Shown here: piece after piece, positions 1 to 16,100 of the stretch | How positions within the stretch are numbered: the stretch's first letter is position 1 | How the letters are laid out: each line of letters starts with the position of its first letter | Translations under genes and position numbers: made by a program | The notes under the pieces: model-generated | What the model saw: only the letters and a program-made list of their open reading frames with translations | Databases searched by the model: none | Told to the model about the DNA's origin: nothing | Source of the DNA: Candidatus Saccharimonadota bacterium | GTDB taxonomy: Bacteria; Patescibacteriota; Saccharimonadia; Saccharimonadales; UBA4665 | Direction: 5' to 3' | Assembly (NCBI GenBank): GCA_003516025.1 | Contig: CP023991.1 | Location: 30,001 to 62,000, forward strand | Length of the DNA: 32,000 nt

Positions 1-2
1 AA

Positions 3-1070
3 GAACGTGCTCTGCAACAAAAATACCGGGCATATAACAACCTCCAGAATGCCAGTGGTGGACGCGTCAAACGGTTTGCTGCCCGCAGGGCAGCGGGGGC
101 GATAGGCGGGTTCAACATTGAATCACAGGTATCTGCCAACAATGCTAAAAACGCCAAGATGATTGACGATCAGACAGCCAACGGGCCCGATAACTTAGTC
201 CGTGCCTACACGGTCAATAAAAGCTACGCTGATAAATTATTGGCTAGTGGCGACTCACGCGCCTCTGACTTCGTCCGTGTCAATAAAGACGCTGCCGGCA
301 ATGAGATTGGTCGTGAATACCGTTCAGTCGGTGGCTCATGGCAAAGCGAAGCCGACGTATTAGCTTCTAACCGCGCCTTTGGCAACAACAACCATGCTGC
401 TTTCCAAAAAGCACTTACCTACGAAATGGGTAAGGCCAACACGCAGGAGGAGCAGGATCACGTTGTCAGTTCTTACGGAGCAGCTGCTGCCCGCTTTGGC
501 ATGACACAGCGCGAAGCAGGAGAGGTCTGGATAGGCTCAGCGTACGCTCAGCAGAACAGCAACCGCCAGTGGAAGCATCACAAGTGGTCAACCGGTTCAG
601 ACGGCATGCTGCACAGTTCTGTTAACGGCCTCGGTATGATGCGCGAAATTGACGAGAAGCAGGGCAACTACCAGATGATGCAGCAGAGTGCCGATACCTG
701 GACTACCATGGGTCAGGAAGTCGTTACCGCCCGGCAGGTTATGGACGGCTCGGTTACTGGTGACCGCGTCAAGGCCGAAGAGACCTTGCAGCGGGCCGCC
801 CGCATCGCGCACGCGACACGTTCCGGCGGTATGTCCCGTTCACCTGTTACCGGCCAGGAAGGTGACGTTACCGGAGCAACGACCGGCGGTGGTGGAGAAG
901 TTGGATCTGGTGCTCCTGGCCGTGTCATGGAAGAGATGAACCGCTTCGTTCAACTTACCGATATGCATGCAGGTAAGTACACTCCGCCGAAAGGCAGCTC
1001 AGCTCCGCCGACAGTTATTCCTGGCGACGTAAGCGAAGGGACTATAAACCGGCGTTCTCCAGATCGGTAA
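3..1070 (+). CDS. hypothetical protein, C-terminal part (ORF runs off the left window edge)
   Basis: The frame of the 159..1070 ORF stays open with no stop back to nt 3 (ERALQQKYRAYNNLQNASGG...), so the Met at 159 is probably internal. The product is hydrophilic and Gly/Gln/Ala-rich, with no motif I recognise. It is co-directional and closely spaced with the PrgI/VirB4 genes. Confidence 0.5.
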   Translation, partial: ERALQQKYRAYNNLQNASGGRVKRFAARRAAGAIGGFNIESQVSANNAKNAKMIDDQTANGPDNLVRAYTVNKSYADKLLASGDSRASDFVRVNKDAAGNEIGREYRSVGGSWQSEADVLASNRAFGNNNHAAFQKALTYEMGKANTQEEQDHVVSSYGAAAARFGMTQREAGEVWIGSAYAQQNSNRQWKHHKWSTGSDGMLHSSVNGLGMMREIDEKQGNYQMMQQSADTWTTMGQEVVTARQVMDGSVTGDRVKAEETLQRAARIAHATRSGGMSRSPVTGQEGDVTGATTGGGGEVGSGAPGRVMEEMNRFVQLTDMHAGKYTPPKGSSAPPTVIPGDVSEGTINRRSPDR

Positions 1071-1585: not shown

Positions 1586-2743
1586 ATGGCGACGTACAAA
1601 GTTCTCCAGGATATTGAGGCAGAAGACAAGCTGGTGGGCCCGCTGACGCTCCGGCAGTGTATTTATGCTGCCATTGCTATCGTATCCATCTATTTTTCAT
1701 ACTTGGTTATATCCAAAGGCGCAGCCTTTTTGGCAGTCGTATTTCTACCGTTTATTGGTTTTGGCATTTTCTTTGCTTTCCCATGGAACAAGCAGCAGTC
1801 GACCGAAGTTTGGGCACTGGCAAAAGTCCGGTTCGCCCTTAAGCCGCGTAAGCGTATTTGGGATCAGAGCGGTATTAAACAGCTGGTTGCGATTACGGCT
1901 CCGAAGCAGGTTGAGGACCCACGCAAGAATAGCCACATGTCCGAAGTGGAAGTCCGCAACCGCCTGGCGGCCCTGGCGGCTACCGTTGACAGCCGTGGTT
2001 GGGCAGTTAAAAACGTGCCGGGCAATCTATACGCCCAGCAGGGCGGGGTACGGTCTGACCGCCTGATGGAAGGGAGCACGACGTCAGGACCGCAGGTAAT
2101 TGATTACAAGTCGAGCTCGTCAGACGATATGTTCGACCTCGAGCATAATCCATTGGCGCAGCAATTTGATGCCAAGATAAGCGCGGCAACTCAAGCGTAC
2201 CGACAGCAGCTGGTGAACCAGATGAACGCGCCGGAGCAAGCGCAGCCGGCGGTTTCCGATCAAAGCTACTGGTATGCCAGCCAACCTATGCCGGCAGTAT
2301 CAGCGACGTTCGCCCAAGCCCCCATGGCAGCCATGCCAACCCCCGAGGAAGAGGCTTTAGCCCAGGATATCAAACGCCGCCAAGAAATCATGAACGAGGC
2401 CGCCTACGGTAATATTAGCGACCGGATGAAGGTCGTCCTGCCACTATCGCAACAGCCGGTTGTTCAACCAGTACCATTACAGGCGCCGGTCGCGGCAGCT
2501 CCCGCTCCTGATACGACTTCCCAATTGGCAACCCAGATATTAACCGGTCAATCAGCTATGCCAATGCCGCCAATCACTGCGCCAATTCAGCCTGCCGTTC
2601 CAGTGACACCGGTACCAAACCCTGCTATACTTGAACTTGCTAACAACAACGACTTAGATGTGGCAACGATTGCGCGAGTGGCGCACGAAAGTGATCCGAA
2701 CCAGTCAAATGGCTCCAACGAGGTCGTCGTATCACTACATTAA
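1586..2743 (+). CDS. PrgI-family (VirB3-like) T4SS membrane protein with a long Pro/Gln/Ala-rich C-terminal extension
   Basis: The N-terminus YKVLQDIEAEDKLVGPLTLRQCIYAAIAIVSIYFSYLV...FLAVVFLPFIGFGIFFAF is the characteristic PrgI-family opening followed by two TM helices. It lies directly upstream of VirB4, as in Gram-positive T4SS. About 270 extra residues are low-complexity P/Q/A. Confidence 0.75.
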   Translation: MATYKVLQDIEAEDKLVGPLTLRQCIYAAIAIVSIYFSYLVISKGAAFLAVVFLPFIGFGIFFAFPWNKQQSTEVWALAKVRFALKPRKRIWDQSGIKQLVAITAPKQVEDPRKNSHMSEVEVRNRLAALAATVDSRGWAVKNVPGNLYAQQGGVRSDRLMEGSTTSGPQVIDYKSSSSDDMFDLEHNPLAQQFDAKISAATQAYRQQLVNQMNAPEQAQPAVSDQSYWYASQPMPAVSATFAQAPMAAMPTPEEEALAQDIKRRQEIMNEAAYGNISDRMKVVLPLSQQPVVQPVPLQAPVAAAPAPDTTSQLATQILTGQSAMPMPPITAPIQPAVPVTPVPNPAILELANNNDLDVATIARVAHESDPNQSNGSNEVVVSLH

Positions 2744-2790: not shown

Positions 2791-3705
2791 ATGAATCCGC
2801 AAATGCCAAATCCACAAGGTCAAGTTCCCAACATGGGACAAGCCCCACAAGGCGGCACTGTACCTTCAGCAGCTCCCGCTGCGATGCCGTTGCCACCGCA
2901 GCCAGCCGCACCGATCCAGGCACCAGTCGGACAGGCAGTCGTCCAGACGGCGCCTCAAACCCGGCCGGCACCACCATCAAACCCAAACAGTACTCAAAAC
3001 ACGCTGCAAATCGCAGAAATCCGTGATGGCATCGTTATTATGAGCGACGGCAGCTTTCGTTCAGTAGTCATGGTAAAAAGTATTAACTTTGACCTTATGA
3101 GCCAGGGCGAACAGGAGGCGGTCGAGTATAGTTACCAAAGCTTCTTAAACTCGCTCTATTTCCCGGTACAGATTTTTATACGCTCCTCCAAGATCGATCT
3201 GCAGCCATATATCGAAAAGCTCGATAAAATACGTACCGAACACGATAATATGCTGCTCGCGCTCCTGATGGACGACTACATTGGCTATATTGACGCTCTA
3301 AGCCAGCAGACTAACATTATGGACAAGAAGTTTTATATAGTCATTCCTTATTTCCCGCATGTTGATACGCAAAAAGCTTTAACACAGAGCAAGAACTTTT
3401 TTAGCGGCTTAGGCGCGCTGCTGAACACCAAGGAACACCAGGTAATCGTCAATGAAGCCGACCTTGAAAAGGCCAAGAGCGAGCTTCGTAACCGCGTACA
3501 AGCGACATTATCGGGATTACTACAGTGCGGTGTCCAGGGACTGCCACTCGATACTCAGGAATTGATTGAGCTCTACTACGACACCTACAACCCCGATACG
3601 GCCGTTCGCCAGCCACTACATGACTTCAATTCACTCAATGGCGATGTAATCACTAAGGGCCAGGGCGCAGCAAATCAGCCGCACCTGGAAAGGGAACTAC
3701 AATAA
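2791..3705 (+). CDS. T4SS accessory protein: P/Q-rich N-terminus plus a domain resembling a VirB4 N-terminal module
   Basis: Residues ~75-200 (IAEIRDGIVIMSDGSFRSVVMVKSINFDLMSQGEQEAVEYSYQSFLNSLYFPVQIFIRSSKIDLQPYIEKL...KKFYIVIPYF) follow the pattern I associate with the N-terminal region of long Gram-positive VirB4/TrsE-type ATPases. Its stop overlaps the VirB4 ATG (TAATG at 3703-3707). Confidence 0.5.
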   Translation: MNPQMPNPQGQVPNMGQAPQGGTVPSAAPAAMPLPPQPAAPIQAPVGQAVVQTAPQTRPAPPSNPNSTQNTLQIAEIRDGIVIMSDGSFRSVVMVKSINFDLMSQGEQEAVEYSYQSFLNSLYFPVQIFIRSSKIDLQPYIEKLDKIRTEHDNMLLALLMDDYIGYIDALSQQTNIMDKKFYIVIPYFPHVDTQKALTQSKNFFSGLGALLNTKEHQVIVNEADLEKAKSELRNRVQATLSGLLQCGVQGLPLDTQELIELYYDTYNPDTAVRQPLHDFNSLNGDVITKGQGAANQPHLERELQ

Positions 3706-5627
3706 TGGCACGTAATAAAAAAGGCGCACAAATTGATCCTGTAGCACTCGCGGAACAGCAGCGAGCCCGTGAACAGCAAGAAGTTAACGTCGCGTTCCAG
3801 CGCGGTTTGACGGCGCTGCGTGACTTTATCGCGCCTAGTTCAATCGAATTTTCAGCCGGCTATTTCCAGCTTGGCACCCGCTATGCTCGGACATTCTTTG
3901 TCTACGGTTACCCGCGGCAGCTGTTTACCGGCTGGATGAGCAGCATGATCAACCTCGACGAAGTTATCGACCTGTCGATGTATATATATCCGGTGGAAAG
4001 CCAGGTGGTACTGGAAAACCTTCGTAAAAAAGTGACGCAGCTGGAAGCTGGTATTCAGATTGACAACGAAAAGGGCCGCATTCGTGATCCAGGTAAACAA
4101 GCGGCCATCCAGGACGCCGAAGAGATGCGCGATAAGTTACAAGTCGGTGAAGAGCGCTTTTTCCGATTCGGCCTGTATTTCACCGTTTACGCGTCAGCGA
4201 TGGACGAACTGGAGTTTATTGCTCATAAAGTCGAAGCCCTGCTTGGCCAGCAGTTAGTCTATTCTAAGGCCGCTACCAGCCAGCAGGAACAGGGACTTAA
4301 CAGCACTGTGCCGCAATTTACCGACCAGTTACAAATTCGCCGCAATATTTCCACCGGCGCCCTCAGCACCAGTTTTCCGTTTACCAGCGCTAACCTCAGC
4401 CAGGAAAATGGCATTTTGTACGGCGTAAACATGCACAACTCCGGACTGGTTATTTTTGACCGCTTCAGCCTGGAAAACGGCAACTCGGTAGTATTCGCCA
4501 AGTCCGGTGCCGGTAAATCGTTCACCGTTAAGCTTGAGGCGCTGCGCAGCCTGATGTTCGGTACTGAAATATTTATTATTGACCCGGAAAATGAATACGA
4601 GCGGATGTGTGACGCCGTTGGCGGGGCCTACGTGCGTTTAAGCCTCGGGAGTAGCACGCGAATTAATCCGTTTGACCTGCCACAGGTAATCGATACCGAC
4701 GAGGCCGACAACGCGCTGCGCTCCAACTTGATTACACTTCACGGGTTGCTTCGTCTCATGATGGGCGGCGCTCAGGCCCAGATGATGGGCGGCAATACCA
4801 CGATGATGCCGGCGCTCAGTCCGGTCGAGGAATCTGACCTGGATAGCGCCCTCATTGAAACCTACGCCAAAGCCGGCATCACTAACGATCCACTGACACA
4901 CACCGGCACGCCGCCGACAATCAATGACCTGTATGACACTTTGCTGCATATGGGCGGCACCGGCCCGCAGTTAGCCCAACGCCTGCGCAAGTATACTACC
5001 GGTACCTTTGCCGGCATCTTCAGCCAGCAGTCCAACGTCAATATCAATAACCCGCTGGTAGTATTCAATATCCGCGACCTGGAAGATGAACTCCGCCCAG
5101 TCGCCATGTACATTGTGCTCAATTACATCTGGAACAAGACTAAAAGCGATCAAAAGAAGCGCATTCTAATCGTTGACGAGGCCTGGCAGTTAATGAAATA
5201 CGAAGACTCGGCCAACTTCCTGTTCAGCCTCGCTAAGCGGGCCCGTAAATATAACCTGGGCATTACGACCATTACCCAGGATGTGGAAGACTTTATGGGT
5301 TCCCGCATGGGTCGCGCAATTGTGGCTAACGCCTCGATGCAGTTCCTGCTGAAACAATCGAGCAGCGCCGTGGATATCCTGGCGGACGTCTTCAAACTTA
5401 CCGGGGAAGAGAAGAAGCGCCTGAGCCAGTTCCCGGTTGGCCAGGGATTATTCTTTGCGGGCCAGAACCATGTACACCTCCAGGTGGTCGCCAGCCCGAC
5501 AGAGACCGGTTTGATTACGACTAACCCGCAGCAGGTGCAGCAAATGGCTACTCAGCAGCAGGGTGGAGATTTCGATCAGCCGCAAGGTACAATTGACCTA
5601 TCAAACCGCTTGTATCCAGGTGTATAA
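3705..5627 (+). CDS. virB4: VirB4/TrsE/PrgJ-type T4SS ATPase (DUF87/AAA-like)
   Basis: Walker A KSGAGKS is at nt 4500-4520 and Walker B ILIVDEAW has its DE at nt 5175-5180. The N-terminal region has the pattern YARTFFVYGYPRQLFTGWMSSMINLDEVIDLSMYIYP typical of Gram-positive VirB4. At 640 aa it is comparable to the short Gram-positive VirB4 forms. Confidence 0.9.
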   Translation: MARNKKGAQIDPVALAEQQRAREQQEVNVAFQRGLTALRDFIAPSSIEFSAGYFQLGTRYARTFFVYGYPRQLFTGWMSSMINLDEVIDLSMYIYPVESQVVLENLRKKVTQLEAGIQIDNEKGRIRDPGKQAAIQDAEEMRDKLQVGEERFFRFGLYFTVYASAMDELEFIAHKVEALLGQQLVYSKAATSQQEQGLNSTVPQFTDQLQIRRNISTGALSTSFPFTSANLSQENGILYGVNMHNSGLVIFDRFSLENGNSVVFAKSGAGKSFTVKLEALRSLMFGTEIFIIDPENEYERMCDAVGGAYVRLSLGSSTRINPFDLPQVIDTDEADNALRSNLITLHGLLRLMMGGAQAQMMGGNTTMMPALSPVEESDLDSALIETYAKAGITNDPLTHTGTPPTINDLYDTLLHMGGTGPQLAQRLRKYTTGTFAGIFSQQSNVNINNPLVVFNIRDLEDELRPVAMYIVLNYIWNKTKSDQKKRILIVDEAWQLMKYEDSANFLFSLAKRARKYNLGITTITQDVEDFMGSRMGRAIVANASMQFLLKQSSSAVDILADVFKLTGEEKKRLSQFPVGQGLFFAGQNHVHLQVVASPTETGLITTNPQQVQQMATQQQGGDFDQPQGTIDLSNRLYPGV

Positions 5628-5675
5628 TATTTAACAGACATTAGAGACTGTCTGTAACGTTTTAGGTGAATACTC

Positions 5676-8600
5676 GTGCCGACATATGATGATCAAAAAT
5701 CAGACACTGACAAAAAATTCGACGATTTAGTCGGACGTAACTTCAAGCCAGGTGAAGCCGACCAGATTGAGGCTGGCGCGCGTGACGCCGAACAGCAACG
5801 GGTTGATAACGAATTTAATAACATCGTTGGCGGTGAAAGTAGCGGCGCGGATTCCAGTAAGTCAGACGGTAACACCCAAGCTGCGGATAAGAGCGAACTC
5901 CGGGGTAAAGAAACGGATGGCGCTCAAGATGGTAAACAATCTGGAGACGCCTCTCAGCCATCGTCCGACGATCAGGATGACGGCGCAAAAAAAACCGGCT
6001 TCCGTGGTTGGAGCCGGCGCAAAAAAGTCGGCGTGGGACTAACCTCTATACTGTTAGGCGGCGGCGCTACCGGTTTTGGTTTTCTCATGTTATTGTCGCC
6101 GATAGCTAAAGTGGAAACTGTTATGAACAGTATCGATTCGTTTTATGGTGCCGCTAATGAGAGCGCCATTGATACGGCCACTCAAAACGCCCTTAATGGT
6201 TACCTGGTTAAAAAAGTCTTTCCAAACCTCGGCCGAGGTAACTGCCACACGACCAGAGACGCCGCCTGTACGGCAACCGCCTCAGACGCCTCCAATCCAA
6301 TTGGCGCTTTATATAACGCCTGGAAAGAGGATCGTATCGAGCAAAAACTGGCCAACAATTACGGCCTCGTTTTCGGTCGGAAGGGCGGCGGTAACGGGAC
6401 ACTATACATTAACGTCAACGGCAGGGATATCGACCTTAAAAATGGTGGCAATATTTGGGACAGCGCGGATACAAAAGCGTCCACTAAAAACGAAATCCGT
6501 AACGCCATTAAGACCAACTTCAAGGAAGCGTCGTTGTATGACAGGTACTACACCCGTTATAAGGTTGGTAAGTTAGTCGAGCAAAAGTACGGCGTTAAAC
6601 GCTGTACTTTTAAGTGCGACCTGCGTGACAACTTTAGCGACAACGTAGACACCAAGAAAAAGGCTGCTAAGGCACTGCTGATTCGAAGGGTCATCGGTCC
6701 GTTCAGCGAGAATACCGCGCTTGCGCTGACGTGCGTAATGGATGGAAGTTGTAACTTGGAACCTGATAATTCTCACGACATTACTGATGACAACCAGGTT
6801 GAACGGCGCAGTGATTTTAGCAGTAAAGTGCAGAGCCAGGTCAATAAATTCGCCCTGGAGTATGGCAGTGATAAGCTTGCCGACCTGTCGAAACAAGTTG
6901 ACGCCATGGGCGACGACGGCGTTATGAAGTACGCCATGCGAGCCACCCTCAGTAAGGTTTTAGGTAAAGAAATCAGTGGCGAAGCGATCGATAAAGTCGC
7001 TACGCCCATTGGCTGGATAAACTTCGCAGCCCAAATTATCAACTTCGTGGATACCGCCGGTCCAAAGATGCAAAAAATATCATTTGCGCTGTCGACAACC
7101 ATGGCAGTGCAGACGTATATGATGTACGTAACCGCGGGCAACGAGGCCCGAGCCGGGCAAACCGACATGACACAGTTCGGGAGTCTCAGCGATTCACTCA
7201 CCACGGCATCGGTCGACGATGAAGGCGATAGCTCAGATATGACGGCAACACCGATGTATCAGGAGATTATAAACCGGGGTACCACTAGCACGGATAGCAG
7301 TGTGGCATCGCTATTCAACCCACAGGCATACGCCGCTACTAGCACTAAATACACCTGTAACGACAATAAAGAGCTGCCAGCGGGCCAAAAAGTCTGCCCG
7401 GAGGAGGTCGTTAATGGTGGTAATAGCTACGCCACCGCCTTAACCGAGGGCGCGCAGACGATTCCCGGCTGGGGAGCACTGAGCAACGTCGCTCATGTGT
7501 GGACGAGTATTGTCGGTAAAGCTTTCGGTGCGATTGGCGATGTCGCAGGCGCCGCGTTATCACTCCTTCCAGGTTGGGATAACCTTATGAATACGGTCGC
7601 CGGGTGGGTCACGCCTCTATTTACCTGGGTAGCTAAATCAGTAATCCCGAATTTACTTGGCTCTCTGACTGGCGGCCGGTTGGTTGACGTGCTAATGATC
7701 GGCGCCAATACTACGTATAACGTGAGCGCGGGCACGCAGCTCGGTGCTGGCCGCGTGTCGGACGAAGACATAGCGCAGGTGCGAACCGCTTATCTCGACC
7801 AGCAGGAACAGGAGTTCCAGAGTAAAAGCCTGTATGCCAGAATATTTGATACTGAATCACCCCACTCATTAGTAACCCAGATGGCGGCAGCAATGCCGAC
7901 CACCAATAACTTCGCCTCCTCGTTCGGGAAGCTCGCCAGCAACCCATTCGGCCACCTGAGTACGGCAATATTCAGCGCCTTTACACCAAGCCGGGCATTC
8001 GCCGCAGTTTCAGCTCAGCCGGATCCGTTCGGAGTGCCCCAGTTGGCCGTACTGCCGCAAGACATTCCCGAGAATGTTGATGACACCTGGTGGAACCAGA
8101 ACTGCCCGGCAGATTACGTACAAAAATTCCTGGACAGCCAGACTGAAGACCCGACTACCGGCATGATGGTCGCCAGCGAGACCGACCCATGCTTTATCTA
8201 TAAAACGGTCAGCCAGGTTGCCGGTGGAAAATCTGATCCAAAGTTGCTGCCCAAGGACACGACGAGCACAACACAGACAGACGCAGCTGCCGGATCAGGC
8301 GACCTAAGCCTCGTGAGCGGTGACACCATGAGCCTCGCCAAACAAATCATGGATAAAGCTAACGATCCGAACGGCAGCATTAAATTCCAGACACCGGCCA
8401 ATAAGTCAGCCTTTCAGCGCGTCGTAGATACAGGTCATGCCGCAAACTGTGGTGGACCGGCTATCTCATCGAAGCTTCTAGGCGTAATCCTCACACTGTC
8501 TAAGAGTTACAAGCTTGTACTTGGCGTGTTTGTAGACGGACATGATTGTGATAGCGGCAATCATCCGAAAGGTGCGGCGGTTGATATCAATGGCGTCAAC

Positions 8601-8849
8601 CCACTGAACGGGGGCAGCGGCGGTACAGGTAATCAGTTGCATTTCGAATCTGCGTCCATGCCTATCATCCGAGAGTTTTACCAAAGGGCGGGTGAAGTAC
8701 TGGCCGCCAGTGGAGGCGGCGGACTTGGCCAGTACGGCACGTATGACGGCCGCCAATGTTTTGCCGGAACCTTGCCACCAAAAGTGCAAGGTGTAGCCTA
8801 CTTCCCGGACAGTTGTACACACTTACACATGGACACCAGAGGAAAATAA
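5676..8849 (+). CDS. large membrane protein with a C-terminal LAS-superfamily (M15A / YcbK-MepK-like) zinc peptidase domain
   Basis: GTG start with AGGTGA at 5664-5669. The first ~115 aa are acidic and disordered, followed by a strong TM helix at aa ~118-143 (nt 6027-6104). At the C-terminus, NHPKGAAVDI gives H-x6-D (His 8562-8564, Asp 8583-8585). GGGGLGQY and THLHMDTRG (HLH at 8818-8826) follow in the same order and spacing as E. coli MepK (LHMQGKAMDF ... GGVGYY ... FVHIDTG). Confidence 0.7.
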   Translation: MPTYDDQKSDTDKKFDDLVGRNFKPGEADQIEAGARDAEQQRVDNEFNNIVGGESSGADSSKSDGNTQAADKSELRGKETDGAQDGKQSGDASQPSSDDQDDGAKKTGFRGWSRRKKVGVGLTSILLGGGATGFGFLMLLSPIAKVETVMNSIDSFYGAANESAIDTATQNALNGYLVKKVFPNLGRGNCHTTRDAACTATASDASNPIGALYNAWKEDRIEQKLANNYGLVFGRKGGGNGTLYINVNGRDIDLKNGGNIWDSADTKASTKNEIRNAIKTNFKEASLYDRYYTRYKVGKLVEQKYGVKRCTFKCDLRDNFSDNVDTKKKAAKALLIRRVIGPFSENTALALTCVMDGSCNLEPDNSHDITDDNQVERRSDFSSKVQSQVNKFALEYGSDKLADLSKQVDAMGDDGVMKYAMRATLSKVLGKEISGEAIDKVATPIGWINFAAQIINFVDTAGPKMQKISFALSTTMAVQTYMMYVTAGNEARAGQTDMTQFGSLSDSLTTASVDDEGDSSDMTATPMYQEIINRGTTSTDSSVASLFNPQAYAATSTKYTCNDNKELPAGQKVCPEEVVNGGNSYATALTEGAQTIPGWGALSNVAHVWTSIVGKAFGAIGDVAGAALSLLPGWDNLMNTVAGWVTPLFTWVAKSVIPNLLGSLTGGRLVDVLMIGANTTYNVSAGTQLGAGRVSDEDIAQVRTAYLDQQEQEFQSKSLYARIFDTESPHSLVTQMAAAMPTTNNFASSFGKLASNPFGHLSTAIFSAFTPSRAFAAVSAQPDPFGVPQLAVLPQDIPENVDDTWWNQNCPADYVQKFLDSQTEDPTTGMMVASETDPCFIYKTVSQVAGGKSDPKLLPKDTTSTTQTDAAAGSGDLSLVSGDTMSLAKQIMDKANDPNGSIKFQTPANKSAFQRVVDTGHAANCGGPAISSKLLGVILTLSKSYKLVLGVFVDGHDCDSGNHPKGAAVDINGVNPLNGGSGGTGNQLHFESASMPIIREFYQRAGEVLAASGGGGLGQYGTYDGRQCFAGTLPPKVQGVAYFPDSCTHLHMDTRGK

Positions 8850-10138
8850 TGCAAGCCCTGTTCATACACACCAGACGAATTACAACTATAATTATCAGCC
8901 TGGTAGTCTTTGCCGTGTCAGTGCTTTCCAGTGGCGTAGCACAGGCTCAAGCTGTTAAATGCCCCGCGAATATAAAAGATAACCTCGGCCAGTGCAGTTG
9001 TCCGGTTGGGACGTCCGACATGGATTGTCAGGCTTTGATGGGGCCATGGCCAAACTGGGATCCGTTAAGCAATAATTACGCTAGTTGTGACGCCGCAGCC
9101 GCCACGGCGCTGACAGGCTCCGATAACGCCCAAAAAGTCTACAATTTTTTGATCGGTAAAGGTTTAAAACCATGGATGGCAGCCGGCTTTTTGGGAAATA
9201 TCTGGGAAGAATCAGCTCATGAGTTTGACCCAACGATCGTCCAGGGAGGCGGCCACGCCGATAACATCACCGTAGACGGAGTTACCGGTTACGGTATCAT
9301 TCAGTGGACATCGAAAGGACGCCAACAGGGCCTGGCTGACCTTGCTAAAGAGCGAGGGGTAAAATCAGGTGATCTTGGCGTGCAGTTGGAATACATTTGG
9401 CAGGAACTCAATACCGGCTATACGACATCTACTCTAAACCCATTACTCGCCAGCACTAATGTTACTGATGCCACGCATATCATCGAGCTGCATTACGAAA
9501 TCCACGCGGCTCCACCCATTCACCCGATTCGCACCGAAAAAGCCATTGGCTACTTAGCCTTGTACGGATCGGGCGCCGGTGACGCTTCGGCAACCGTACC
9601 AGCCACCGCCGTTGCCAGCGGATGTGGTGCCGCGGCTGGAGCTCTCGGTGGCGCGGTTGACGGTTTTATATTCCCACTCGTCACTACTCAGGGCGCCATT
9701 AAAGGCAATAAGCCGTACCCTTGGTGCTCTACCGCGATGGCTAACTGCCACCACGATTACAATGCCGCCGACATCATGACAGCCGAGGGCACACAAGTTG
9801 TCGCCGCCTATCCAGGCACGGTTGTCATGACCGAGAACATTGCCGGAAAAAATGCCGATGTCGCTATTATGGGTGACGATAAAAATGTTTATTTCTATCA
9901 ACATATGGCGCCAGGGAGTCTCCAGGTTCAAAAAGGAGCTAAAGTTACCGCTGGAACACCACTTGGCAAAGTAGGTAACCGGGCGGCGGCTTTCGGCACC
10001 GATCCTCATCTGCATTTCGACATGCTACCGCCGCCAAACACCAACCGCATGGGATGCGCCTCGGCGGCTTGCTCAAAATACCCGTTCATCAACGTACAAC
10101 CGATTTTAGTTAAAGCATTCCAGGCATTGCCACAATAA
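8849..10138 (+). CDS. secreted bifunctional cell-wall hydrolase: lysozyme-like (phage-tail-lysozyme type) domain + M23 metallopeptidase domain
   Basis: I prefer the start at 8849 (TAATG overlap with the upstream stop), which gives the signal peptide MQALFIHTRRITTIIISLVVFAVSVLSSGVAQAQA. AAGFLGNIWEES...GYGIIQWTSKGRQ...LEYIWQEL is the lysozyme-like motif set (EES at 9206-9214). The C-terminus VVAAYPGTVV...GTPLGKVGN...TDPHLHFDM is the M23 signature (HLH at 10007-10015). Confidence 0.8.
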   Translation: MQALFIHTRRITTIIISLVVFAVSVLSSGVAQAQAVKCPANIKDNLGQCSCPVGTSDMDCQALMGPWPNWDPLSNNYASCDAAAATALTGSDNAQKVYNFLIGKGLKPWMAAGFLGNIWEESAHEFDPTIVQGGGHADNITVDGVTGYGIIQWTSKGRQQGLADLAKERGVKSGDLGVQLEYIWQELNTGYTTSTLNPLLASTNVTDATHIIELHYEIHAAPPIHPIRTEKAIGYLALYGSGAGDASATVPATAVASGCGAAAGALGGAVDGFIFPLVTTQGAIKGNKPYPWCSTAMANCHHDYNAADIMTAEGTQVVAAYPGTVVMTENIAGKNADVAIMGDDKNVYFYQHMAPGSLQVQKGAKVTAGTPLGKVGNRAAAFGTDPHLHFDMLPPPNTNRMGCASAACSKYPFINVQPILVKAFQALPQ

Positions 10139-10146: not shown

Positions 10147-11679
10147 ATGAAAGGGGACGGAAACAATATGAGACAAAAGGTAATAGCAGGCATCAGCCTG
10201 ATCGCGATTGTCAGTGTTTTAGCCTGGGTGGCGACACATGGAAAACTGCACGTTACCGTAGCCGGCGGTAACGGCGACGGCACCTATCATTACCAGTTTA
10301 ATGACAACGAAGCCGAGCCAGTGCTTGATAAAACCACCGGTGTTTCAGTCAGCAAGCTCGTCTCACGTGGCACATATGAGGTGGTCGTTACCGGCAATGG
10401 CGGCAGTTACGTGGGAACAACTCAGACCAAAGGTTTCTTAGGCACTCAGGACGTCCAGGCAGCAATGGAAGCCGAGAACGAACGCAGCTTCGTAGGATCA
10501 AACCCCGATAGCTGTATGTTCTATACCGATCGTCTCATATCGGGGCCATGCGGCGGCGCGCTCAGCGACCTCAAAATCCATCAGCCAGCATCCTCGGCGC
10601 AACCATCTTACGTTGAAAACCTGGCGGTTGATAACTACAACAGCTCATCGACTACTACGCAAATCGTGGAAACCTCAGGCAAACTGCTCGGTCTTACCGC
10701 CCAATCGCAAGAAGACGCCAGTGGCCCGGCAGGTTATTACTTATTTACGTTTAATCCGAATTTTTCAGTAGCAAAGCGTCAACTACTGACTAATCTGTCG
10801 ATATCTGACGCCTATTTTGCCCGGCCCTATAAAGACGGCATGATGCTCTATGACAGTACTATGCGCGCCTGGTACGTTTCGGATGCCTCAGAGGAGGCCC
10901 AAGACCTCCATATCGACTCACCCAAGGATGACAAACTCAAAGTTGGCCTAGTGACGACTGCCGGCGACACCATTACTGCCGTCTATACCGACCAGTCTAC
11001 CGGTATCGACACCGAAGGAGCGTCAGCAGAAGCGTCAAAAGGCAAAAGTGAAGTCGTAGTATTCAAAAACAACAAGAACACTCATTTCATCTTTGACTCA
11101 GTTGTTGTAACTGCGCAGGTATGCGGCACCGACAAGCTATGCGTCGTATCCGACATCGGGCTCAAGGTATACGACATTAGTTCCGGCGAACTGAAACACC
11201 TTTATACGTTATCGGGAGTCGAAGACTTTTTTGAAATAAATAATAGGGTTTTGGCAGTCACCGAACAGGGTATCATGACGTATGACGCCGATAAGCAACA
11301 GGGTTATTTTAGCTACCTGTTCGACAAATACCAGTACTGCGGTTTAAGCATTGCCAGTAACGGCTACCTGTTATGCGTTACCGACCCCAAGGGCCAGCGG
11401 CAGGCCCTGTACGTTAATCCAGACAGTAAAGATGCCACGGCTATAGACAAAAAGGTGGCTGGCTTATTCGCGACAACCGGCATATCCAACCTCTCGATAT
11501 ATGGTAATTACCTGTACATCACCCCGAATTATGGCGAAGGCACCTATGACTGGAGTACCCGGACGCAAAGTTACGACCCGGCCAAGAAAGCAGCCACTGA
11601 CACCGCCATTGCCCAGGCAGTCGCTAAAGCAGGCATCGACACTGCGCGGTACCAAGTCATCAACATCGGCCAACAATAA
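10147..11679 (+). CDS. membrane-anchored hypothetical protein, beta-rich ectodomain
   Basis: An N-terminal TM/signal anchor (VIAGISLIAIVSVLAWVATHG) is followed by an Ig-like-looking segment and repeated beta-strand-like motifs (LKVYDISSGELKHLY, IMTYDADKQQGYFSY, ALYVNPD). The alternative start at 10168 has a better SD (AGGGGA at 10151-10156). No family recognised. Confidence 0.6.
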   Translation: MKGDGNNMRQKVIAGISLIAIVSVLAWVATHGKLHVTVAGGNGDGTYHYQFNDNEAEPVLDKTTGVSVSKLVSRGTYEVVVTGNGGSYVGTTQTKGFLGTQDVQAAMEAENERSFVGSNPDSCMFYTDRLISGPCGGALSDLKIHQPASSAQPSYVENLAVDNYNSSSTTTQIVETSGKLLGLTAQSQEDASGPAGYYLFTFNPNFSVAKRQLLTNLSISDAYFARPYKDGMMLYDSTMRAWYVSDASEEAQDLHIDSPKDDKLKVGLVTTAGDTITAVYTDQSTGIDTEGASAEASKGKSEVVVFKNNKNTHFIFDSVVVTAQVCGTDKLCVVSDIGLKVYDISSGELKHLYTLSGVEDFFEINNRVLAVTEQGIMTYDADKQQGYFSYLFDKYQYCGLSIASNGYLLCVTDPKGQRQALYVNPDSKDATAIDKKVAGLFATTGISNLSIYGNYLYITPNYGEGTYDWSTRTQSYDPAKKAATDTAIAQAVAKAGIDTARYQVINIGQQ

Positions 11680-11680
11680 C

Positions 11681-12742
11681 CTACAGCGGAATAATATGGC
11701 TCTTGTCCATAAAATGATGAACAACCACATCGGCATCGGTAGTAGTTATAAATGTCTGGTAGTCCTGCAGATAATTAGTCAGGGCCTGACGACGCGCGCC
11801 GTCAAGTTCACTAAAAACATCATCTAGTAGGAGTAGGGGAGCAGTCCCACGGGCCTGCTGGACGAGTTGTAGTTCCATGACTTTTAACATCAGTACGGCC
11901 GTCCGGGTTTCACCGCGCGAAGCCGAAGTCTGGGCCAGTCGTCCATTAATAAGCACCCGCAGGTCTTCGCGGTGTGGGCCATTTCCCGTAAAACCGCGGG
12001 CCACGTCTAGGTCAATGGTAGCTTCCAGTAAACGAAGCAGGCCAGACTCATAACTATCCGTAGGCAATTTGGTTTCGTACTGCAGCTCTACAGTCTGCTT
12101 ATGCTGTTCATTCTTATGCGCCAGGCTGCCGTAGAGGCCGCTAGCCTGGACATTCATACCATTAAGCAACTCCAGGCGTGCCCGGGCGATGCGGCCGCCC
12201 AATTCGCTTAATCGAATGTTCCATGGAAAAATTTGTCCCGCGGCAGCCGGGCCCAGTTTTTTAAGCAGGGCATTCCGCTGCGCCAGTACTCGCCGGTAAT
12301 CTTTACGGAGAGTGCTGTAGCCGGGCTGGATCTGCTCAAGCAGCCCATCAAGATAACTGCGGCGCAGTTCCGGAGCACCCGAGAACATAAACAGGTGGTT
12401 TGGTTCAAATACGACAGTCGGGATGGATTTTTGCATACTGAGCCGGCGGTACAGCTTACCCTCGATTTCGTATGTTTTTGCCGGGCGTGGTTCGGTAACA
12501 ATCTTAACCGTTCGTAGCCCCGTGTCATCACGGGCGTCAAGCCGTGCCCATGGCTGGTCGTAGGCTAGCAGTTCACTATCGCTCACGCGGTACGAACTGC
12601 CTTGAGCAACCACCAGTATAGACTCCAAGAGATTTGTCTTACCACTGGCATTGGGGCCAACAATGATATTTACCCCTGGTGTAAACTCAAAAGCTTCGTC
12701 AGCATACGACCGGAAGTGCTGCAGGCGGATATCGTAGATCAT
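11681..12742 (-). CDS. recF: DNA replication and repair protein RecF
   Basis: MIYDIRLQHFRSYADEAFEFTPGVNIIVGPNASGKTNLLESI carries the RecF N-terminus and Walker A, and LLLLDDVFSELD is the Walker B/signature region. It sits in the canonical position after dnaN. Confidence 0.95.
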   Translation of the reverse strand: MIYDIRLQHFRSYADEAFEFTPGVNIIVGPNASGKTNLLESILVVAQGSSYRVSDSELLAYDQPWARLDARDDTGLRTVKIVTEPRPAKTYEIEGKLYRRLSMQKSIPTVVFEPNHLFMFSGAPELRRSYLDGLLEQIQPGYSTLRKDYRRVLAQRNALLKKLGPAAAGQIFPWNIRLSELGGRIARARLELLNGMNVQASGLYGSLAHKNEQHKQTVELQYETKLPTDSYESGLLRLLEATIDLDVARGFTGNGPHREDLRVLINGRLAQTSASRGETRTAVLMLKVMELQLVQQARGTAPLLLLDDVFSELDGARRQALTNYLQDYQTFITTTDADVVVHHFMDKSHIIPL

Positions 12743-12763
12743 TAAGAACTATTATACGGAGAT

Positions 12764-13861
12764 TTAACTCTTTAGCGGCATGATGATATGCGCGTAGTCA
12801 TCATTATTCGGATCTTTTAGTAAAGTCGGTTCAAGCTTGCCATTAAAGCTAAACGTTACTTCATCACCCGAAAAGGCGTGCAGGGCATCAAGCAGGTAGC
12901 GCGAGTTAAGCGTAATGGAACCGCTACCGGCAATCGTTCCGCTGGCGCTGGCCGTGTTTTCACCAAGCTGCGAAGCAACCGAGCGGATACTTAGCTCACC
13001 AGAGGTCTCATCGACGTTAATCGTGATACTGCCGGCGCTTTCGCGGGCGAACAGGCTGGATACCTTGGTGACGTTTACCAGATCTGCCCGCTTTAAGCGG
13101 GCCTCGACGGCGAATGAAGTGGGGATGAGTTTCCGGTAATCCGGATACTTGCCGTCAATCAGACGAGCCACCAGATCAACGTCATTTGCCTGGAACAGTA
13201 TCTGCTGATCGTCATGCGTGACGCTCATAATCTCATCATAATCACCAATAATACGTAACAGGTCCTGAATAGCGGTTGCGGGGATTAGCAGGCGAACGTC
13301 CTGGTCGTTCTTGCTGAGGTTTTTCTCGGCCAGCCGGTAACTGTCAGTAGCCGCGGCATACAGCCTGCCTTCGCTTACCTGTAGTAATACCCCGGTAAGT
13401 ACCGGCCGGGATTCGTCACTGGAGGCAGCCATAATAACTTGCTGGAGACCTTTCTTAAGCGTGGCGGCATTTATCGTCCAGGTATTACCATTACTTATCT
13501 CCGGCATAACGGGGAAGTCGTCGGCAAGCACACCGTTAACCACAGACTGGTATTTATCTGTGGATATATGCAGCTTATTGTCATCGAGCTTCAGGTCAAT
13601 CACGCCGCTCGGCAAACTGGAGATAAAATCCTGCATGAGGCGGGCTGGAACCGTAATGGCACCTTCCTCGACAACTTTGGCTCCAATATGTTGACTGATG
13701 GCAATATCGAGATTAGTGGCTGATATCGTTAATCGGTTACCGACTGTTTTAACCAATACGTTCGCCAGTATCGGCAAAGTATTCCGTGCACTCGCCACCC
13801 GTGCAACTATTCCAAGAGCTTTGTTGAGGTTTTCCTGTGTGACCTGTAACTGCATATTCAC
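12764..13861 (-). CDS. dnaN: DNA polymerase III beta sliding clamp
   Basis: The N-terminus LQVTQENLNKALGIVARVASARNTLPILANVLVKT is typical of DnaN. At 365 aa it sits immediately downstream of dnaA/oriC. Confidence 0.95.
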   Translation of the reverse strand: MNMQLQVTQENLNKALGIVARVASARNTLPILANVLVKTVGNRLTISATNLDIAISQHIGAKVVEEGAITVPARLMQDFISSLPSGVIDLKLDDNKLHISTDKYQSVVNGVLADDFPVMPEISNGNTWTINAATLKKGLQQVIMAASSDESRPVLTGVLLQVSEGRLYAAATDSYRLAEKNLSKNDQDVRLLIPATAIQDLLRIIGDYDEIMSVTHDDQQILFQANDVDLVARLIDGKYPDYRKLIPTSFAVEARLKRADLVNVTKVSSLFARESAGSITINVDETSGELSIRSVASQLGENTASASGTIAGSGSITLNSRYLLDALHAFSGDEVTFSFNGKLEPTLLKDPNNDDYAHIIMPLKS

Positions 13862-13880
13862 ATGCTCCTTACTTTCTTCT

Positions 13881-14132
13881 TTATATATTATTAGTAGTAG
13901 TTATAGGGGGTGTGGAAAAGGTGGATAAGTAGCGTGCTACATCTGTTATATGGCGGAAAATGGCAGAGGAAAACTTACGGACAGTTGTGGTTAAAATCTG
14001 TGGTTTCACACAGGGGGTATAGTGGACAGCTCCAGCGACCTGTGGGGAGTGGGGAAAACCATGCCGACTTATACGTAGGCCTTGCCACCAGGTGTACACG
14101 AGTTTTCCACAGTTTTTGTCTATCAGTCCACA
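13881..14132. other. chromosomal replication origin (oriC), dnaA-dnaN intergenic module
   Basis: The AT-rich run at 13881-13906 contains phased TAT TAT TAG TAG TAG TTA TAG (13886-13906), followed by GGGG (13907-13910). Tandem boxes TGTGGAAAA (13911-13919) and GGTGGATAA (13920-13928) come next. Further DnaA-box-like 9-mers are TGTGGTTAA 13986-13994, TGTGGTTTC 13999-14007, AGTGGACAG 14021-14029 and TGTGGGGAG 14041-14049. On the opposite strand are TTTTCCACA 14103-14111 and CAGTCCACA 14124-14132. Confidence 0.8.
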
Positions 14133-14160
14133 GAATAGATCAGATAGCTTACCTAATAGA

Positions 14161-15576
14161 CTATGCATAGAGCAACTCCTTGATGTTGTTGACTGCATCG
14201 CGGATATCAGTATCAAGGTGAATCTCTTTCTCGATCTTCTCGACTGAGTGGATAGCTGTGGTGTGATCTTTGCGGCCAAGTTCCCGGGCAATTTTTGGAA
14301 AACTAAGGTGTAGTTCACTGCGCAAGATGTACATAGCCACTTGGCGGGGAACCACGATGTCCCTATCACGCTTACTGCCGAGAATTTCTTCGACACTAAC
14401 CTGGAAATGCCGGGCGGTCCGTTCGATGATTTGTTTGGCACTAATATGTTTCGGCCTGGTTTTTGCAGAGCCGAGCAGCCCGCTAATGATCGCCAAGTTG
14501 GGCTCCAAGGCTCGCATCTCACAAAAGGCCAGCAGCTGGTTAAGGGCGCCCTCCAGTTCACGAATGTTGGTGGTTACGTTGTTGGCTAGGTATTCTACGA
14601 CGTCCCGCGGCAGTTCGACGGCATGGGTATCTGCCTTTGTTTGGATAATGGCGCAGCGGGTTTCAAAGTCCGGAATTTGCATGTCGATACTCATACCCCA
14701 GACAAAGCGGCTGCGCAGACGCTCTTCGAGCGTTGGAATCTCTTTTGGCGGCTTATCGCTGGAAATAATAATTTGCTTTTGGGCCTGATGCAAGGTGTTG
14801 AAAGTATGGAAGAACTCTTCCTGCACCTTTTCTTTACCGGCGATAAACTGGATGTCGTCTACGATCAGTACGTCAGCCCCCCGGTAAAAGTTCGCGAAGT
14901 CAGTATTCTTCTTGTACCGCAGGGCGTCAACGAATTCCTGGAGGAACTGCTCGCTGGTGGCGTAAACTACCCGGGCGTCTTTTTTACTGGCCAGTACAGC
15001 ATTGCCAACGGCCTGCATGAGGTGGGTCTTGCCGATGCCGACGCCACCGTATAAAAACAGCGGATTGTACTTAGTACCTGGGTTGGTAGCGATAGCCTGG
15101 CAGGCGGCGTAGGCCAGTTCATTACCGGAGCCGACAATGAAGTTTTCGAAGGTGTAACGGTCATTGATGCCCTGCCGGTAGGTGTGTGACACGCCGCCGG
15201 AAACACCTGCCGGCGAATGGGGGCGGCTGCTACTTGAGACGGCAGGGGAGGGGACGAACTGCTCTTGTCTTGACTGTGCCTGCGTGTTTTCAAGGCTAAC
15301 CGCATCATTCGCCGGCCGGCGGGCAGCAACAGTGTGGATCTTATACTCAATGCGCTCGGGGTTGAGACCGTTTTTACGGAGCGTATCAGCGATCAGGTCG
15401 TTATACTTACGCTCTAATTGTTGTTTAATGAAAACGTTAGGGACACCAATGACCGCGGACTCGTCGTCGTGTTTGAGCAGCTGTGTTTGCTTAAACCACG
15501 TCATAAAGTTACCGCGTGACACCGATAACTCTATTTCGCCCAAAACCGCCTGCCACAAAGTACCGCCCGGTTGCAT
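14161..15576 (-). CDS. dnaA: chromosomal replication initiator protein DnaA
   Basis: The AAA+ core is LFLYGGVGIGKTHLMQAVGN (Walker A) and LIVDDIQF (Walker B). The C-terminal DNA-binding helix region is HTTAIHSVEKI. A Ser/Pro-rich linker separates domains I and III. Confidence 0.97.
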   Translation of the reverse strand: MQPGGTLWQAVLGEIELSVSRGNFMTWFKQTQLLKHDDESAVIGVPNVFIKQQLERKYNDLIADTLRKNGLNPERIEYKIHTVAARRPANDAVSLENTQAQSRQEQFVPSPAVSSSSRPHSPAGVSGGVSHTYRQGINDRYTFENFIVGSGNELAYAACQAIATNPGTKYNPLFLYGGVGIGKTHLMQAVGNAVLASKKDARVVYATSEQFLQEFVDALRYKKNTDFANFYRGADVLIVDDIQFIAGKEKVQEEFFHTFNTLHQAQKQIIISSDKPPKEIPTLEERLRSRFVWGMSIDMQIPDFETRCAIIQTKADTHAVELPRDVVEYLANNVTTNIRELEGALNQLLAFCEMRALEPNLAIISGLLGSAKTRPKHISAKQIIERTARHFQVSVEEILGSKRDRDIVVPRQVAMYILRSELHLSFPKIARELGRKDHTTAIHSVEKIEKEIHLDTDIRDAVNNIKELLYA

Positions 15577-15627
15577 CAGTGCTTATACTCCCTCTCTTGC
15601 TCTCTAGACCATCAACTTACAGTAGTT

Positions 15628-15656
15628 ACTATAATTGCCCATATCGGACTTTTCCA
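15628..15656 (-). promoter_or_regulatory. candidate dnaA promoter whose -35 lies inside a DnaA box
   Basis: On the minus strand TGGAAA (15656-15651) - N17 - TATAGT (15633-15628). The -35 lies within the DnaA box TGTGGAAAA (complement of 15650-15658). GAGGGAG lies 11 nt upstream of the dnaA ATG. Confidence 0.35.
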
Positions 15657-15797
15657 CAAGTATTTTTGTGATTTTACAGGGAAGGGAAGTAGGGGAGGCA
15701 AGAATGTGGCATATTTATGCACAGTTTATAGCTATCTCCGGTAAATATGTGGAAAACCCCGGATAAACTCCTTAAAATGTTTGAAAAAAGTGGACAA
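15650..15797. promoter_or_regulatory. second DnaA-box cluster in the dnaA-rpmH divergent spacer
   Basis: TTTTCCACA 15650-15658, TGTGGAAAA 15748-15756 and AGTGGACAA 15789-15797, plus a weak TGTGGCATA at 15705-15713. Confidence 0.6.
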
Positions 15798-15808
15798 TTT
15801 GTTACAAT
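15781..15808 (+). promoter_or_regulatory. candidate rpmH promoter TTGAAA-N16-TACAAT with a DnaA-box-like 9-mer in the spacer
   Basis: TTGAAA at 15781-15786 and TACAAT at 15803-15808. AGTGGACAA (15789-15797) lies between them. Confidence 0.4.
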
Positions 15809-15910
15809 AATGAGGTTATTTATTGTTAAATTCACTCTACAACGGACTTCTGCCCTCCAGCTTTAAGGAGGAGCAGGGGAGTGAGCATAGAAAAGGGAAT
15901 AGGATTATTC

Positions 15911-16048
15911 ATGCCAAAGCGAACCTACCAACCAAAGAAGCGCCACCGCGCACGCGTGCACGGTTTTATGGCACGTATGGCCAGCAAAGCCGGCCGTAAT
16001 CTGTTGCAGCGCCGCCGCAATAAGGGCCGCGCTAAGCTAAGCGCCTAA
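15911..16048 (+). CDS. rpmH: 50S ribosomal protein L34
   Basis: Hand translation gives [45 protein letters not shown] (45 aa, below the ORF-track cutoff), the near-universal L34 sequence. AGGA lies ~8 nt upstream. It is divergent from dnaA and upstream of rnpA. Confidence 0.95.
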
Positions 16049-16063
16049 ATCGCTTTAAGCTGT

Positions 16064-16100
16064 GTTTGAGCTGGGAGCTGCTAAGGTTTCCGGCTCAAAC
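16064..16100 (+). terminator. strong stem-loop between rpmH and rnpA (possible attenuator/terminator; no U-tract)
   Basis: GTTTGAGCTGG (16064-16074) pairs with CCGGCTCAAAC (16090-16100), giving 11 bp with one G-U and a 15-nt loop. The sequence that follows, TATATCTAAACC, is not a canonical T-run. Confidence 0.35.

Follow-up and report, generated by a model that had tools for sequence, protein, structure and literature searches.

A protein encoded directly after virB4 in an origin-proximal type IV secretion locus of a Saccharimonadota bacterium joins a predicted helical core to an exchangeable C-terminal module

Saccharibacteria and other Patescibacteria live on host bacteria. The role of the Saccharibacterial type IV secretion system (T4SS) has been called ‘completely unknown’ (PMC11665869). 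In Patescibacteria, the chromosomal and origin-proximal T4SS resembles the conjugation machinery of monoderms, has pilin arrays and is usually found without a relaxase (PMC12102498), and in Southlakia epibionticum it is essential for epibiotic growth (PMC10633639). We analyzed a stretch of 32,000 nucleotides (nt) from a Candidatus Saccharimonadota bacterium (GenBank assembly GCA_003516025.1, contig CP023991.1, positions 30,001 to 62,000 of the forward strand; ‘the window’ in short), with a focus on the gene directly after virB4. An initial annotation, made from the sequence without database searches, had described its product as a membrane protein of 1057 amino acids (aa) in a T4SS context, ending in a MepK/YcbK-like peptidase of family M15A. 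The best explanation as a whole, to which we assign a probability of about 55%, is a T4SS subunit that lies outside the cytoplasm and displays an envelope-degrading enzyme of exchangeable type.

The closest described protein is SEML1_0007 of Ca. Southlakia epibionticum ML1, which is the likely counterpart of the window gene. It has 1113 aa, is encoded directly downstream of virB4 (SEML1_0008), has no Pfam match and was essential in transposon sequencing (Tn-seq). Its residues 951-1105 were assigned to Hedgehog/DD-peptidase in ECOD (template 6n7g chain C, p 0.993), and its best structural neighbours in AFDB are ‘Peptidase M15B domain-containing’ and ‘Peptidase M23 domain-containing’ proteins; the product of the next gene, SEML1_0006, combines a pair of lysozyme-like domains with a cysteine proteinase domain (Wang et al. 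2023, Cell; PMC10633639 supplementary tables). Both proteins belong to an origin-proximal T4SS cluster, follow virB4, precede a lysozyme-type hydrolase, have ~1100 aa and show Hedgehog/DD-peptidase likeness at the C-terminus, over ~155 residues in SEML1_0007; 6n7g was also the fourth Foldseek match of the window tail. For the protein after VirB4, a tail of LAS peptidase type is already on record, in a supplementary table (PMC10633639) and in one sentence (PMC12102498), and the latter study names ‘peptidase and lysozyme homologues’ as likely VirB1 substitutes. We found no published text that discusses the SEML1_0007-type protein, its core or the variability of its tail, the text of PMC10633639 being silent on SEML1_0007. 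The ‘gene after virB4’ family is apparently without a published name, and its core and tail variability appear to be undescribed.

A further comparison is offered by PrgK (pCF10), TraG (pIP501), CwlT (ICEBs1) and TcpG (pCW3). Their genes also lie beside VirB4 in an MPF-FATA-like cluster, and their products likewise combine an N-terminal membrane anchor with modular extracytoplasmic hydrolase domains (PMC12102498). They differ in carrying a lytic transglycosylase or lysozyme together with CHAP, NlpC/P60 or LytM, and no 715-aa helical core, whereas the window locus has lysozyme and M23 domains in a separate downstream gene and the family adds enzymes that are not directed at peptidoglycan. The initial annotation had fairly characterized Gram-positive T4SS hydrolases as usually lysozyme plus CHAP/NlpC, and the very next gene here encodes Phage_lysozyme2 plus M23. 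As expected of VirB1-like proteins, the window protein is encoded within the T4SS cluster and is membrane-anchored by a single transmembrane (TM) helix; no match to lysozyme/lytic transglycosylase, CHAP, NlpC/P60 or TrsG/CD419 was found in it with Pfam and NCBIfam.

The window locus is the chromosomal, origin-proximal Patescibacteria T4SS described in PMC12102498. The gene order, pieced together from the window and locus L001, which belongs to the same genome, is five T4SS pilin paralogues, a TrbL_3/VirB6-like gene, a small open reading frame (ORF), PrgI, a TraC/TrsD-like gene, VirB4 and the gene under study, followed by a secreted Phage_lysozyme2+M23 hydrolase, a 510-aa protein, recF, dnaN, dnaA and, further on, yidC. 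The T4SS context proposed at the outset was thereby borne out by Pfam and JGI annotation, with VirB4 directly upstream and pilin, VirB6-like and PrgI genes in the same cluster. Related loci were obtained from metagenome-assembled genomes of Saccharimonadales/Saccharibacteria. In two of them (L005 and L006), the order TrbL_3, PrgI, TraC-like, VirB4, family member and hydrolase near recF-dnaN-dnaA was confirmed by Pfam; for a third (L002), the reading was limited to the layout of the genes and the lysozyme-like gene downstream. The members in L005 and L006 have phosphoesterase or VanY tails and occupy the same place in the gene order, beside virB4 and dnaA.

The reading frame itself is real, as an identical product came from an independent JGI gene call on a 14.6-kb metagenome contig; the same protein was also present on a contig of ~1.005 Mb. 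Its TAA stop codon (8847-8849) shares one base with the ATG (8849) of the downstream hydrolase gene (TAATG), and because of this overlap the two genes may be translationally coupled. The N-terminal region is acidic, as had been noted (26 D/E against 15 K/R in residues 1-110), is poorly conserved among homologues and is predicted by the positive-inside rule to be cytoplasmic. The TM helix that follows had been correctly placed from nt 6027. With a Kyte-Doolittle maximum of 1.71 in the window protein (family mean 2.05), it is the sole strongly hydrophobic segment kept family-wide, and 96 of 151 relatives have exactly one such segment. The ‘further hydrophobic stretches’ that had been ascribed to the middle region reach merely 0.65-1.27 and fall below TM grade. 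Since RRKK precedes the TM helix, no other TM-grade segment is conserved and the cysteines are invariant, we infer a bitopic N-in/C-out protein with a disulfide-bonded ectodomain.

The core of this ectodomain contains ten cysteines (C190/198, C310/314, C353/359, C561/574 and C810/839) that are invariant in 66 aligned sequences, comprising the window protein and 65 relatives with 26-71% identity to it, and is probably stabilised by disulfides. An AlphaFold2 (AF2) model of the core is nearly all-helical, with several helices of 20-50 residues (pLDDT 78.7, pTM 0.84). A Cys-containing middle region of ~750 aa without a known family had been reported, and a structure prediction with a Foldseek search had been proposed for it. 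The region was indeed without a match among Pfam, NCBIfam and PHROG families and PDB sequences, and the Foldseek search of the helical model against the PDB gave no fold match (best E 0.68, TM-score ≤ 0.11). In the family scans, the full-length protein, its tail and its middle part were compared with Pfam (to E = 10), NCBIfam and PHROGs. They gave only two matches, both discarded: at aa 232-292 a ChvA/NdvA P-loop-like one that is put down to chance, and in PHROGs one over 24 residues to a family of unknown function. Of the channel or adhesin part that had been suggested for the middle region, a polytopic or channel-forming version is unlikely: only one TM-grade segment is conserved, and the transporter matches in Foldseek stay at TM-score ≤ 0.11.

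An exhaustive HMMER search recovered 820 family members as representatives of 50%-identity clusters at E ≤ 1e-3, 444 of them at E ≤ 1e-30, and their architecture is a single TM helix followed by a core of ~715-750 residues. Word-indexed searches had given five matches for the whole protein, one for the tail and 11, mostly fragmentary, with the tail profile. As these searches under-reported the family, a reading of the protein as an orphan was dropped.

The C-terminal tail probably represents a divergent subfamily, as yet without a profile model, within the Hedgehog/DD-peptidase superfamily (clan MD). Members of this clan include the M15 peptidases VanX, VanY and MepK, the M74 peptidase MepA and the Hedgehog N-domain. 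Among 27 homologous tails (17-77% identical to that of the window), the only invariant columns are H963, G966, D970, G1018, H1049 and H1051, and A968 and D1045 are nearly invariant. The invariant set contains the zinc-ligand signature of the superfamily, His-x(3-6)-Asp followed by a C-terminal His that usually lies in H-x-H. H963 and D970 lie in NHPKGAAVDI (aa 962-971), and the coordinates that had been given for this H-x6-D motif were exact. The last motif of the series, THLHMDTRG, is present as well, but its range had been set some bases off, at 8818-8832 instead of 8817-8843; C1047 and the near-invariant D1045 precede its H-x-H. In the AF2 model of the tail (pLDDT 92.3, pTM 0.90), D970 is placed in one strand, and the last strand holds H1049 and H1051. 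In the LAS superfamily (MEROPS clan MD), as in the tail, H-x6-D is followed by a helix, a G-rich strand and H-x-H at matching spacing; also shared are the alpha/beta arrangement predicted for the tail, with His and Asp on adjacent strands, and the peptidoglycan-hydrolase context. The tail differs in having ~28 extra residues after the G-rich strand and ahead of H-x-H, in conserved cysteines round the site and in reaching no curated model, with structural similarity at TM-scores of 0.32-0.46.

All external links of the tail lead to this one superfamily, and each of them is weak. When a profile of 25 tails was compared with PDB sequences, Hedgehog N-domains were the sole matches below E 0.1 (best E 0.003, over ~30 residues around H-x6-D), with Ply500 at E 1.1. 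The H-x6-D motif aligned with SLHYEGRAVDI of Sonic hedgehog and YHTKGQAMDF of MepK. Foldseek against the PDB, which had also been proposed for the C-terminus, returned the N-domain of Sonic hedgehog (Shh-N) as the top four matches, all of them weak (E ~0.1-0.2, probability 0.30-0.60, TM-score 0.32-0.42). In BFVD, the matches included uncharacterised phage proteins (E 0.01, TM-score 0.46) and, as weak matches, entries that bear the names Peptidase M15A and Sonic hedgehog. When the 27 members were scanned with Pfam, sub-threshold matches at E 0.01-0.09 fell on HH_signal (three), Peptidase_M15_4 (two), Extensin-like_C (two) and Peptidase_M15_3 (one), while the remaining six single matches fell on unrelated families. 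The invariant His/Asp/His set and these weak Hedgehog/M15-type profile and structure links agree with the LAS-type C-terminus that had been proposed. This tail type is present in members P0002 and P0006, in the L002 protein and in many representatives, and is absent from P0003-P0005; as far as the sequences searched can tell, the subfamily has been seen only as the tail of this T4SS protein family. A direct profile link from the window tail type to the VanY-type tails was tried and rejected (8% probability); two minor subtypes reached 60-65%, in the motif region only.

The narrower assignment to MepK/YcbK or M15A did not hold. None of the 27 members matched a YcbK/MepK-type model even weakly, neither the whole protein nor the tail matched such models in Pfam or NCBIfam, and hhalign with the real sequence of E. 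coli MepK, a peptidoglycan LD-endopeptidase, aligned only 16 columns at H-x6-D with a probability of 10%. The collinearity with MepK that had been pointed out is real; the MepK strings quoted for it were approximate (they read YHTKGQAMDF / AGGVGYY / FVHIDTG, against NHPKGAAVDI / GGGGLGQY / HLHMDTRG in the window), and the series is equally common to Hedgehog, which carries SLHYEGRAVDI ... WVYY ... HIHCSV. Moreover, MepK has a single His where the window tail has H-x-H, a motif that also occurs in Hedgehog and in the Streptomyces DD-carboxypeptidase, and it is a small periplasmic protein exported by the twin-arginine (Tat) route, in contrast to the tail of a 1057-aa anchored protein. Because the MepK/M15A assignment fails, the specificity for 3-3 cross-links that had been derived from it cannot be inferred; nothing in the sequence discriminates between 3-3 and 4-3 bonds.

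Among relatives, the C-terminal module differs in kind. Tails of 150 representatives were cut at the end of the core hidden Markov model (HMM) and clustered, and their identities were taken from Pfam scans of samples. The tail type of the window was found in 41 of the 150. Another 22 form a cluster whose two tested members match VanY (PF02557), 28 form a mixed cluster of Exo_endo_phos (EEP), M23 and CHAP, often combined, ten have a tail that ends in GWPTW and belongs to no identified family, and 36 are tailless. When the 28 members of the mixed cluster and eight others (n = 36) were scanned with Pfam, 14 had Exo_endo_phos, 12 Peptidase_M23 and ten CHAP, often in combination, with pairings such as EEP plus M23 and EEP plus a tyrosine-phosphatase-like domain. 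Smaller groups carry Beta-lactamase2, Amidase_3 with YkuD, a phospholipase-C-type Phosphoesterase (E 7e-64), GDPD, GH43, NlpC/P60, Y_phosphatase3 or a weak M74-like match. The Ser/Thr/Gly-rich linker is the point at which relatives stop or switch to a different module.

Core relatedness predicts tail type only in part. The nearest core neighbour, at a mean identity of 47%, agreed in tail type in 62 of 141 cases, against 30 ± 6 (maximum 48) after shuffling, and the closest core relatives of the window protein after P0002 comprise four different tail types and one tailless member. Since tail type tracks core kinship only partly, the tail behaves like a module that is often replaced. Novelty in this family seems to lie in the core without a known fold, the unmodelled LAS subfamily and the exchangeable envelope-degrading tails.

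Some further tail types were recorded. The GWPTW-type module of ~180 aa takes the place of the peptidase tail in P0012, P0017, P0020, P0058, P0103, P0108, P0123 and others. It ends in P(M/L)P(A/T/P)GWP(T/S/I)W in most members, and no Pfam family was found in the four members scanned (P0012, P0020, P0043 and P0110). A second tail type without an identity occurs in P0014, P0036, P0041 and P0062. The long tails of P0067, P0053, P0029 and P0026 combine EEP with Y_phosphatase3 or M23, and one JGI record labels an EEP-tail protein ‘exonuclease III’. Among EEP domains are nucleases, sphingomyelinases and lipid phosphatases.

Accordingly, a mechanism can be sketched for the preferred reading, a T4SS subunit that presents an exchangeable enzyme. 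The protein is a fixed component of the Saccharibacterium origin-proximal T4SS, presumably a structural or accessory subunit, and its gene always lies directly after virB4. Its acidic N-terminus would be in the cytoplasm, with one helix as anchor and the remainder outside the cell. This outer part would consist of a mostly helical domain of ~715 residues, a flexible Ser/Thr linker and the enzyme module, in which H963, D970 and H1051 may hold a zinc ion and H1049 would be the putative catalytic residue. At the site where the T4SS and its pilus have to pass a wall, the module may cleave peptidoglycan at its peptide stems or cross-bridges, presumably in concert with the lysozyme+M23 enzyme encoded directly downstream. 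Its target would be the envelope of the host rather than the symbiont’s own wall. We lean to the host because relatives carry lipases, phosphodiesterases, a GH43 glycosidase and EEP at the same position, because the module turns over quickly and because a separate hydrolase would be at hand for self-remodelling. A host wall as target had already been suggested in the initial annotation, and the variety of envelope-degrading tails in the family lends that suggestion indirect support.

Several points weigh against this reading. The protein is anchored in the symbiont’s own membrane, and a host wall would be within reach only if the core spans the envelope or the tail is released. The hydrolases of Gram-positive conjugative T4SSs are modular too, and they act on the donor’s own wall. 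About a quarter of the family is tailless, so the enzyme must be dispensable for the core function. The tail is tied to solved or curated LAS families by weak links only, all of them centred on H-x6-D: the window’s own tail matched no Pfam or NCBIfam model even at E = 1, and hhalign of the window-type tail with VanY-type tails and MepK gave probabilities of 8-10%. To our knowledge, Hedgehog is no proven peptidase, and the fold does not guarantee catalysis. Finally, membership of SEML1_0007 in the family was judged from position, size and annotation, not from sequence.

A more elaborate version pictures the family as a host-facing ‘drill head’ of the essential Saccharibacterial T4SS, in which the disulfide-rich helical core is a part of an extracellular conduit or stalk and presents an enzyme matched to the chemistry of its host’s envelope, and the tail type helps to set host range and the mode of nutrient extraction. 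The enzymes to be considered would be peptidoglycan peptidases of differing bond specificity, an arabinan-type glycosidase, a phospholipase, a phosphodiesterase and a nuclease. We consider this version, enzymes included, rather unlikely as it stands. An architecture of the same kind, with a conserved body and an interchangeable envelope-degrading module, is seen in VgrG/PAAR effectors of type VI secretion systems and in tape-measure proteins of actinophages with embedded M15, M23 or Rpf motifs; the likeness is an architectural analogy alone. Tape measure proteins of Mycobacterium and Gordonia phages were among the weak BFVD matches of the window tail.

The enzyme might also serve the symbiont itself. 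In Gram-positive conjugation systems, PrgK, TraG, CwlT and TcpG open the cell’s own wall, and an anchored, VirB1-like peptidase could in the same way do nothing other than open the symbiont’s peptidoglycan for assembly of the T4SS channel and a VirB2-like pilus. PrgK-type hydrolases are indeed similar in being encoded beside virB4 and in having an N-terminal TM anchor (PMC12102498), the second hydrolase gene directly downstream recalls the multi-domain VirB1-like enzymes, and many of the tested tails are peptidoglycan hydrolases (M23, CHAP, VanY, Amidase_3, NlpC/P60). An obvious role on the own wall is, however, hard to see for the Exo_endo_phos tails (14 of the 36 tested) or for the phospholipase-C-like Phosphoesterase, GDPD, GH43 and tyrosine-phosphatase-like tails. 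A switch of tail type between close core relatives is unexpected for an own wall that changes slowly, and the 36 tailless representatives among 150 also speak against remodelling of the own wall as the sole function, which we regard as possible, if doubtful.

The two other alternatives concern the tail as such. It could be a non-catalytic, Hedgehog-like domain that works as an adhesin or sensor and binds a peptidoglycan stem, a host surface molecule or a metal, in line with the best sequence and structure matches being Hedgehog N-domains and not bona fide peptidases. We find this improbable, as no residue of the H-x6-D ... H-x-H set varies, not even the first His of H-x-H, a catalytic residue of LAS peptidases, and as the modules of relatives at paralogous positions are mostly from active enzyme families. 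The conserved body with a variable C-terminal enzyme behind a flexible linker would equally suit a released effector or toxin, in which the helix is a signal anchor and the protein, or a tail cleaved off at the linker, is delivered to the host in the manner of polymorphic toxins or ‘evolved’ VgrG/PAAR. Such a protein would hardly be expected to keep its core in tailless members or its gene in synteny with structural T4SS genes; there is no evident cleavage site, and no adjacent immunity-like gene was noticed, though none was searched for. We give very little weight to release.

If the T4SS subunit with an exchangeable enzyme is the right picture, a system that is essential in the one species tested has a constant member that carries an envelope-directed enzyme outside the cell. 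This would provide a testable handle in the genetically tractable S. epibionticum for asking if the host envelope is breached by the T4SS and if host range depends on the tail. The analysis also defines two unmodelled families, a T4SS core of ~750 aa without a known fold and a divergent LAS subfamily, both of which Pfam and NCBIfam miss. The features of the gene and of its two neighbours are listed in Table 1.

Table 1. Position of the gene after virB4, its parts and the genes on either side of it in the window
Feature	Position (nt)	Strand	Basis
Whole gene; 1057-aa bitopic (inferred) T4SS-cluster protein; GTG start, TAA stop	5676..8849	+	ORF and JGI gene call
Shine-Dalgarno-like AGGTGA, 6 nt 5' of the GTG start	5664..5669	+	Sequence read directly
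Acidic N-terminal region, aa 1-117, ends RGWSRRKK	5676..6026	+	Composition, alignment
Single conserved TM helix, aa 118-144	6027..6107	+	Kyte-Doolittle
Mostly alpha-helical (predicted) ectodomain core, ~715 aa, ten invariant cysteines	6108..8255	+	Alignment, AF2 model
Ser/Thr/Gly-rich linker, aa ~861-883	8256..8324	+	Alignment, tail boundaries from core HMM
LAS / Hedgehog-DD-peptidase-like module, aa ~884-1057	8325..8846	+	AF2, profile and structure searches
H963-x6-D970 (HPKGAAVD; H..G.A.D), putative first two zinc ligands	8562..8585	+	Invariance in 27 sequences
GGGGLGQY strand motif with invariant G1018	8712..8735	+	Alignment; follows long helix of model
H1049-L-H1051 (H-x-H), putative catalytic His and third zinc ligand	8820..8828	+	Both His invariant; last strand of model
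VirB4-like ATPase, directly upstream	3705..5627	+	Pfam P-loop_TraG 3.5e-26, AAA_10
Downstream hydrolase, 429 aa; signal peptide, Phage_lysozyme2 and Peptidase_M23	8849..10138	+	Pfam 1.9e-27 and 1.3e-14; JGI call

Upstream of virB4, the window begins inside an 864-aa TrbL_3/VirB6-like gene (1-1070, plus strand; 2215-4809 in L001), and the ORF at 159-1070 is its C-terminal part only. The five T4SS_pilin (PF18895) paralogues lie upstream of the window on the opposite strand and correspond to the pilin array described for Saccharibacteria. The PrgI-family protein (1586-2743, plus strand; 385 aa) matches its family over the N-terminal 90 aa (E 3e-11) and has a long additional C-terminal region with a weak PD-(D/E)XK nuclease match (E 0.0018), below the Pfam threshold. 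Directly 5' of virB4, a gene for a 304-aa protein (2791-3705, plus strand) shares base 3705 of its stop codon with the virB4 start. Its product has weak NCBIfam matches to TrsD/TraD and to the N-terminal part of VirB4-like ATPases (E 2e-6 to 4e-5) and is PF26593 TraC-like in JGI, which corresponds to the TrsD-like partner noted in PMC12102498.

The hydrolase gene downstream varies among relatives: L002 has a lysozyme with a different C-terminal region, L005 has Beta-lactamase2 and L006 has Phage_lysozyme2 alone. It is followed in the window by the 510-aa protein (10147-11679, plus strand), which has an N-terminal hydrophobic helix and no Pfam or NCBIfam match and whose gene closes the T4SS block ahead of recF. 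At the corresponding position, S. epibionticum has PEGA-like and prealbumin-like exported proteins, which are essential too. The region at 11681-17570 holds recF, dnaN and dnaA on the minus strand and yidC/60KD_IMP on the plus strand, and the T4SS cluster abuts the region of the replication origin. The origin-adjacent arrangement was also seen in L005 and L006, and a possible gene-dosage effect of it is discussed in PMC12102498.

Beyond yidC, a surface-polysaccharide cluster occupies the window from ~18000 to 32000. It encodes GT4 and GT2 glycosyltransferases, an exporter made of an ABC-2 permease and its ATPase, a DegT-type aminotransferase, a WbqC-like protein, an ATP-grasp protein, an FkbM methyltransferase and an 850-aa GT1-containing protein. 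From ~20 kb of the window onward, the G+C content falls from ~0.50-0.55 to ~0.41-0.47, and the cluster may be a horizontally acquired glycan island.

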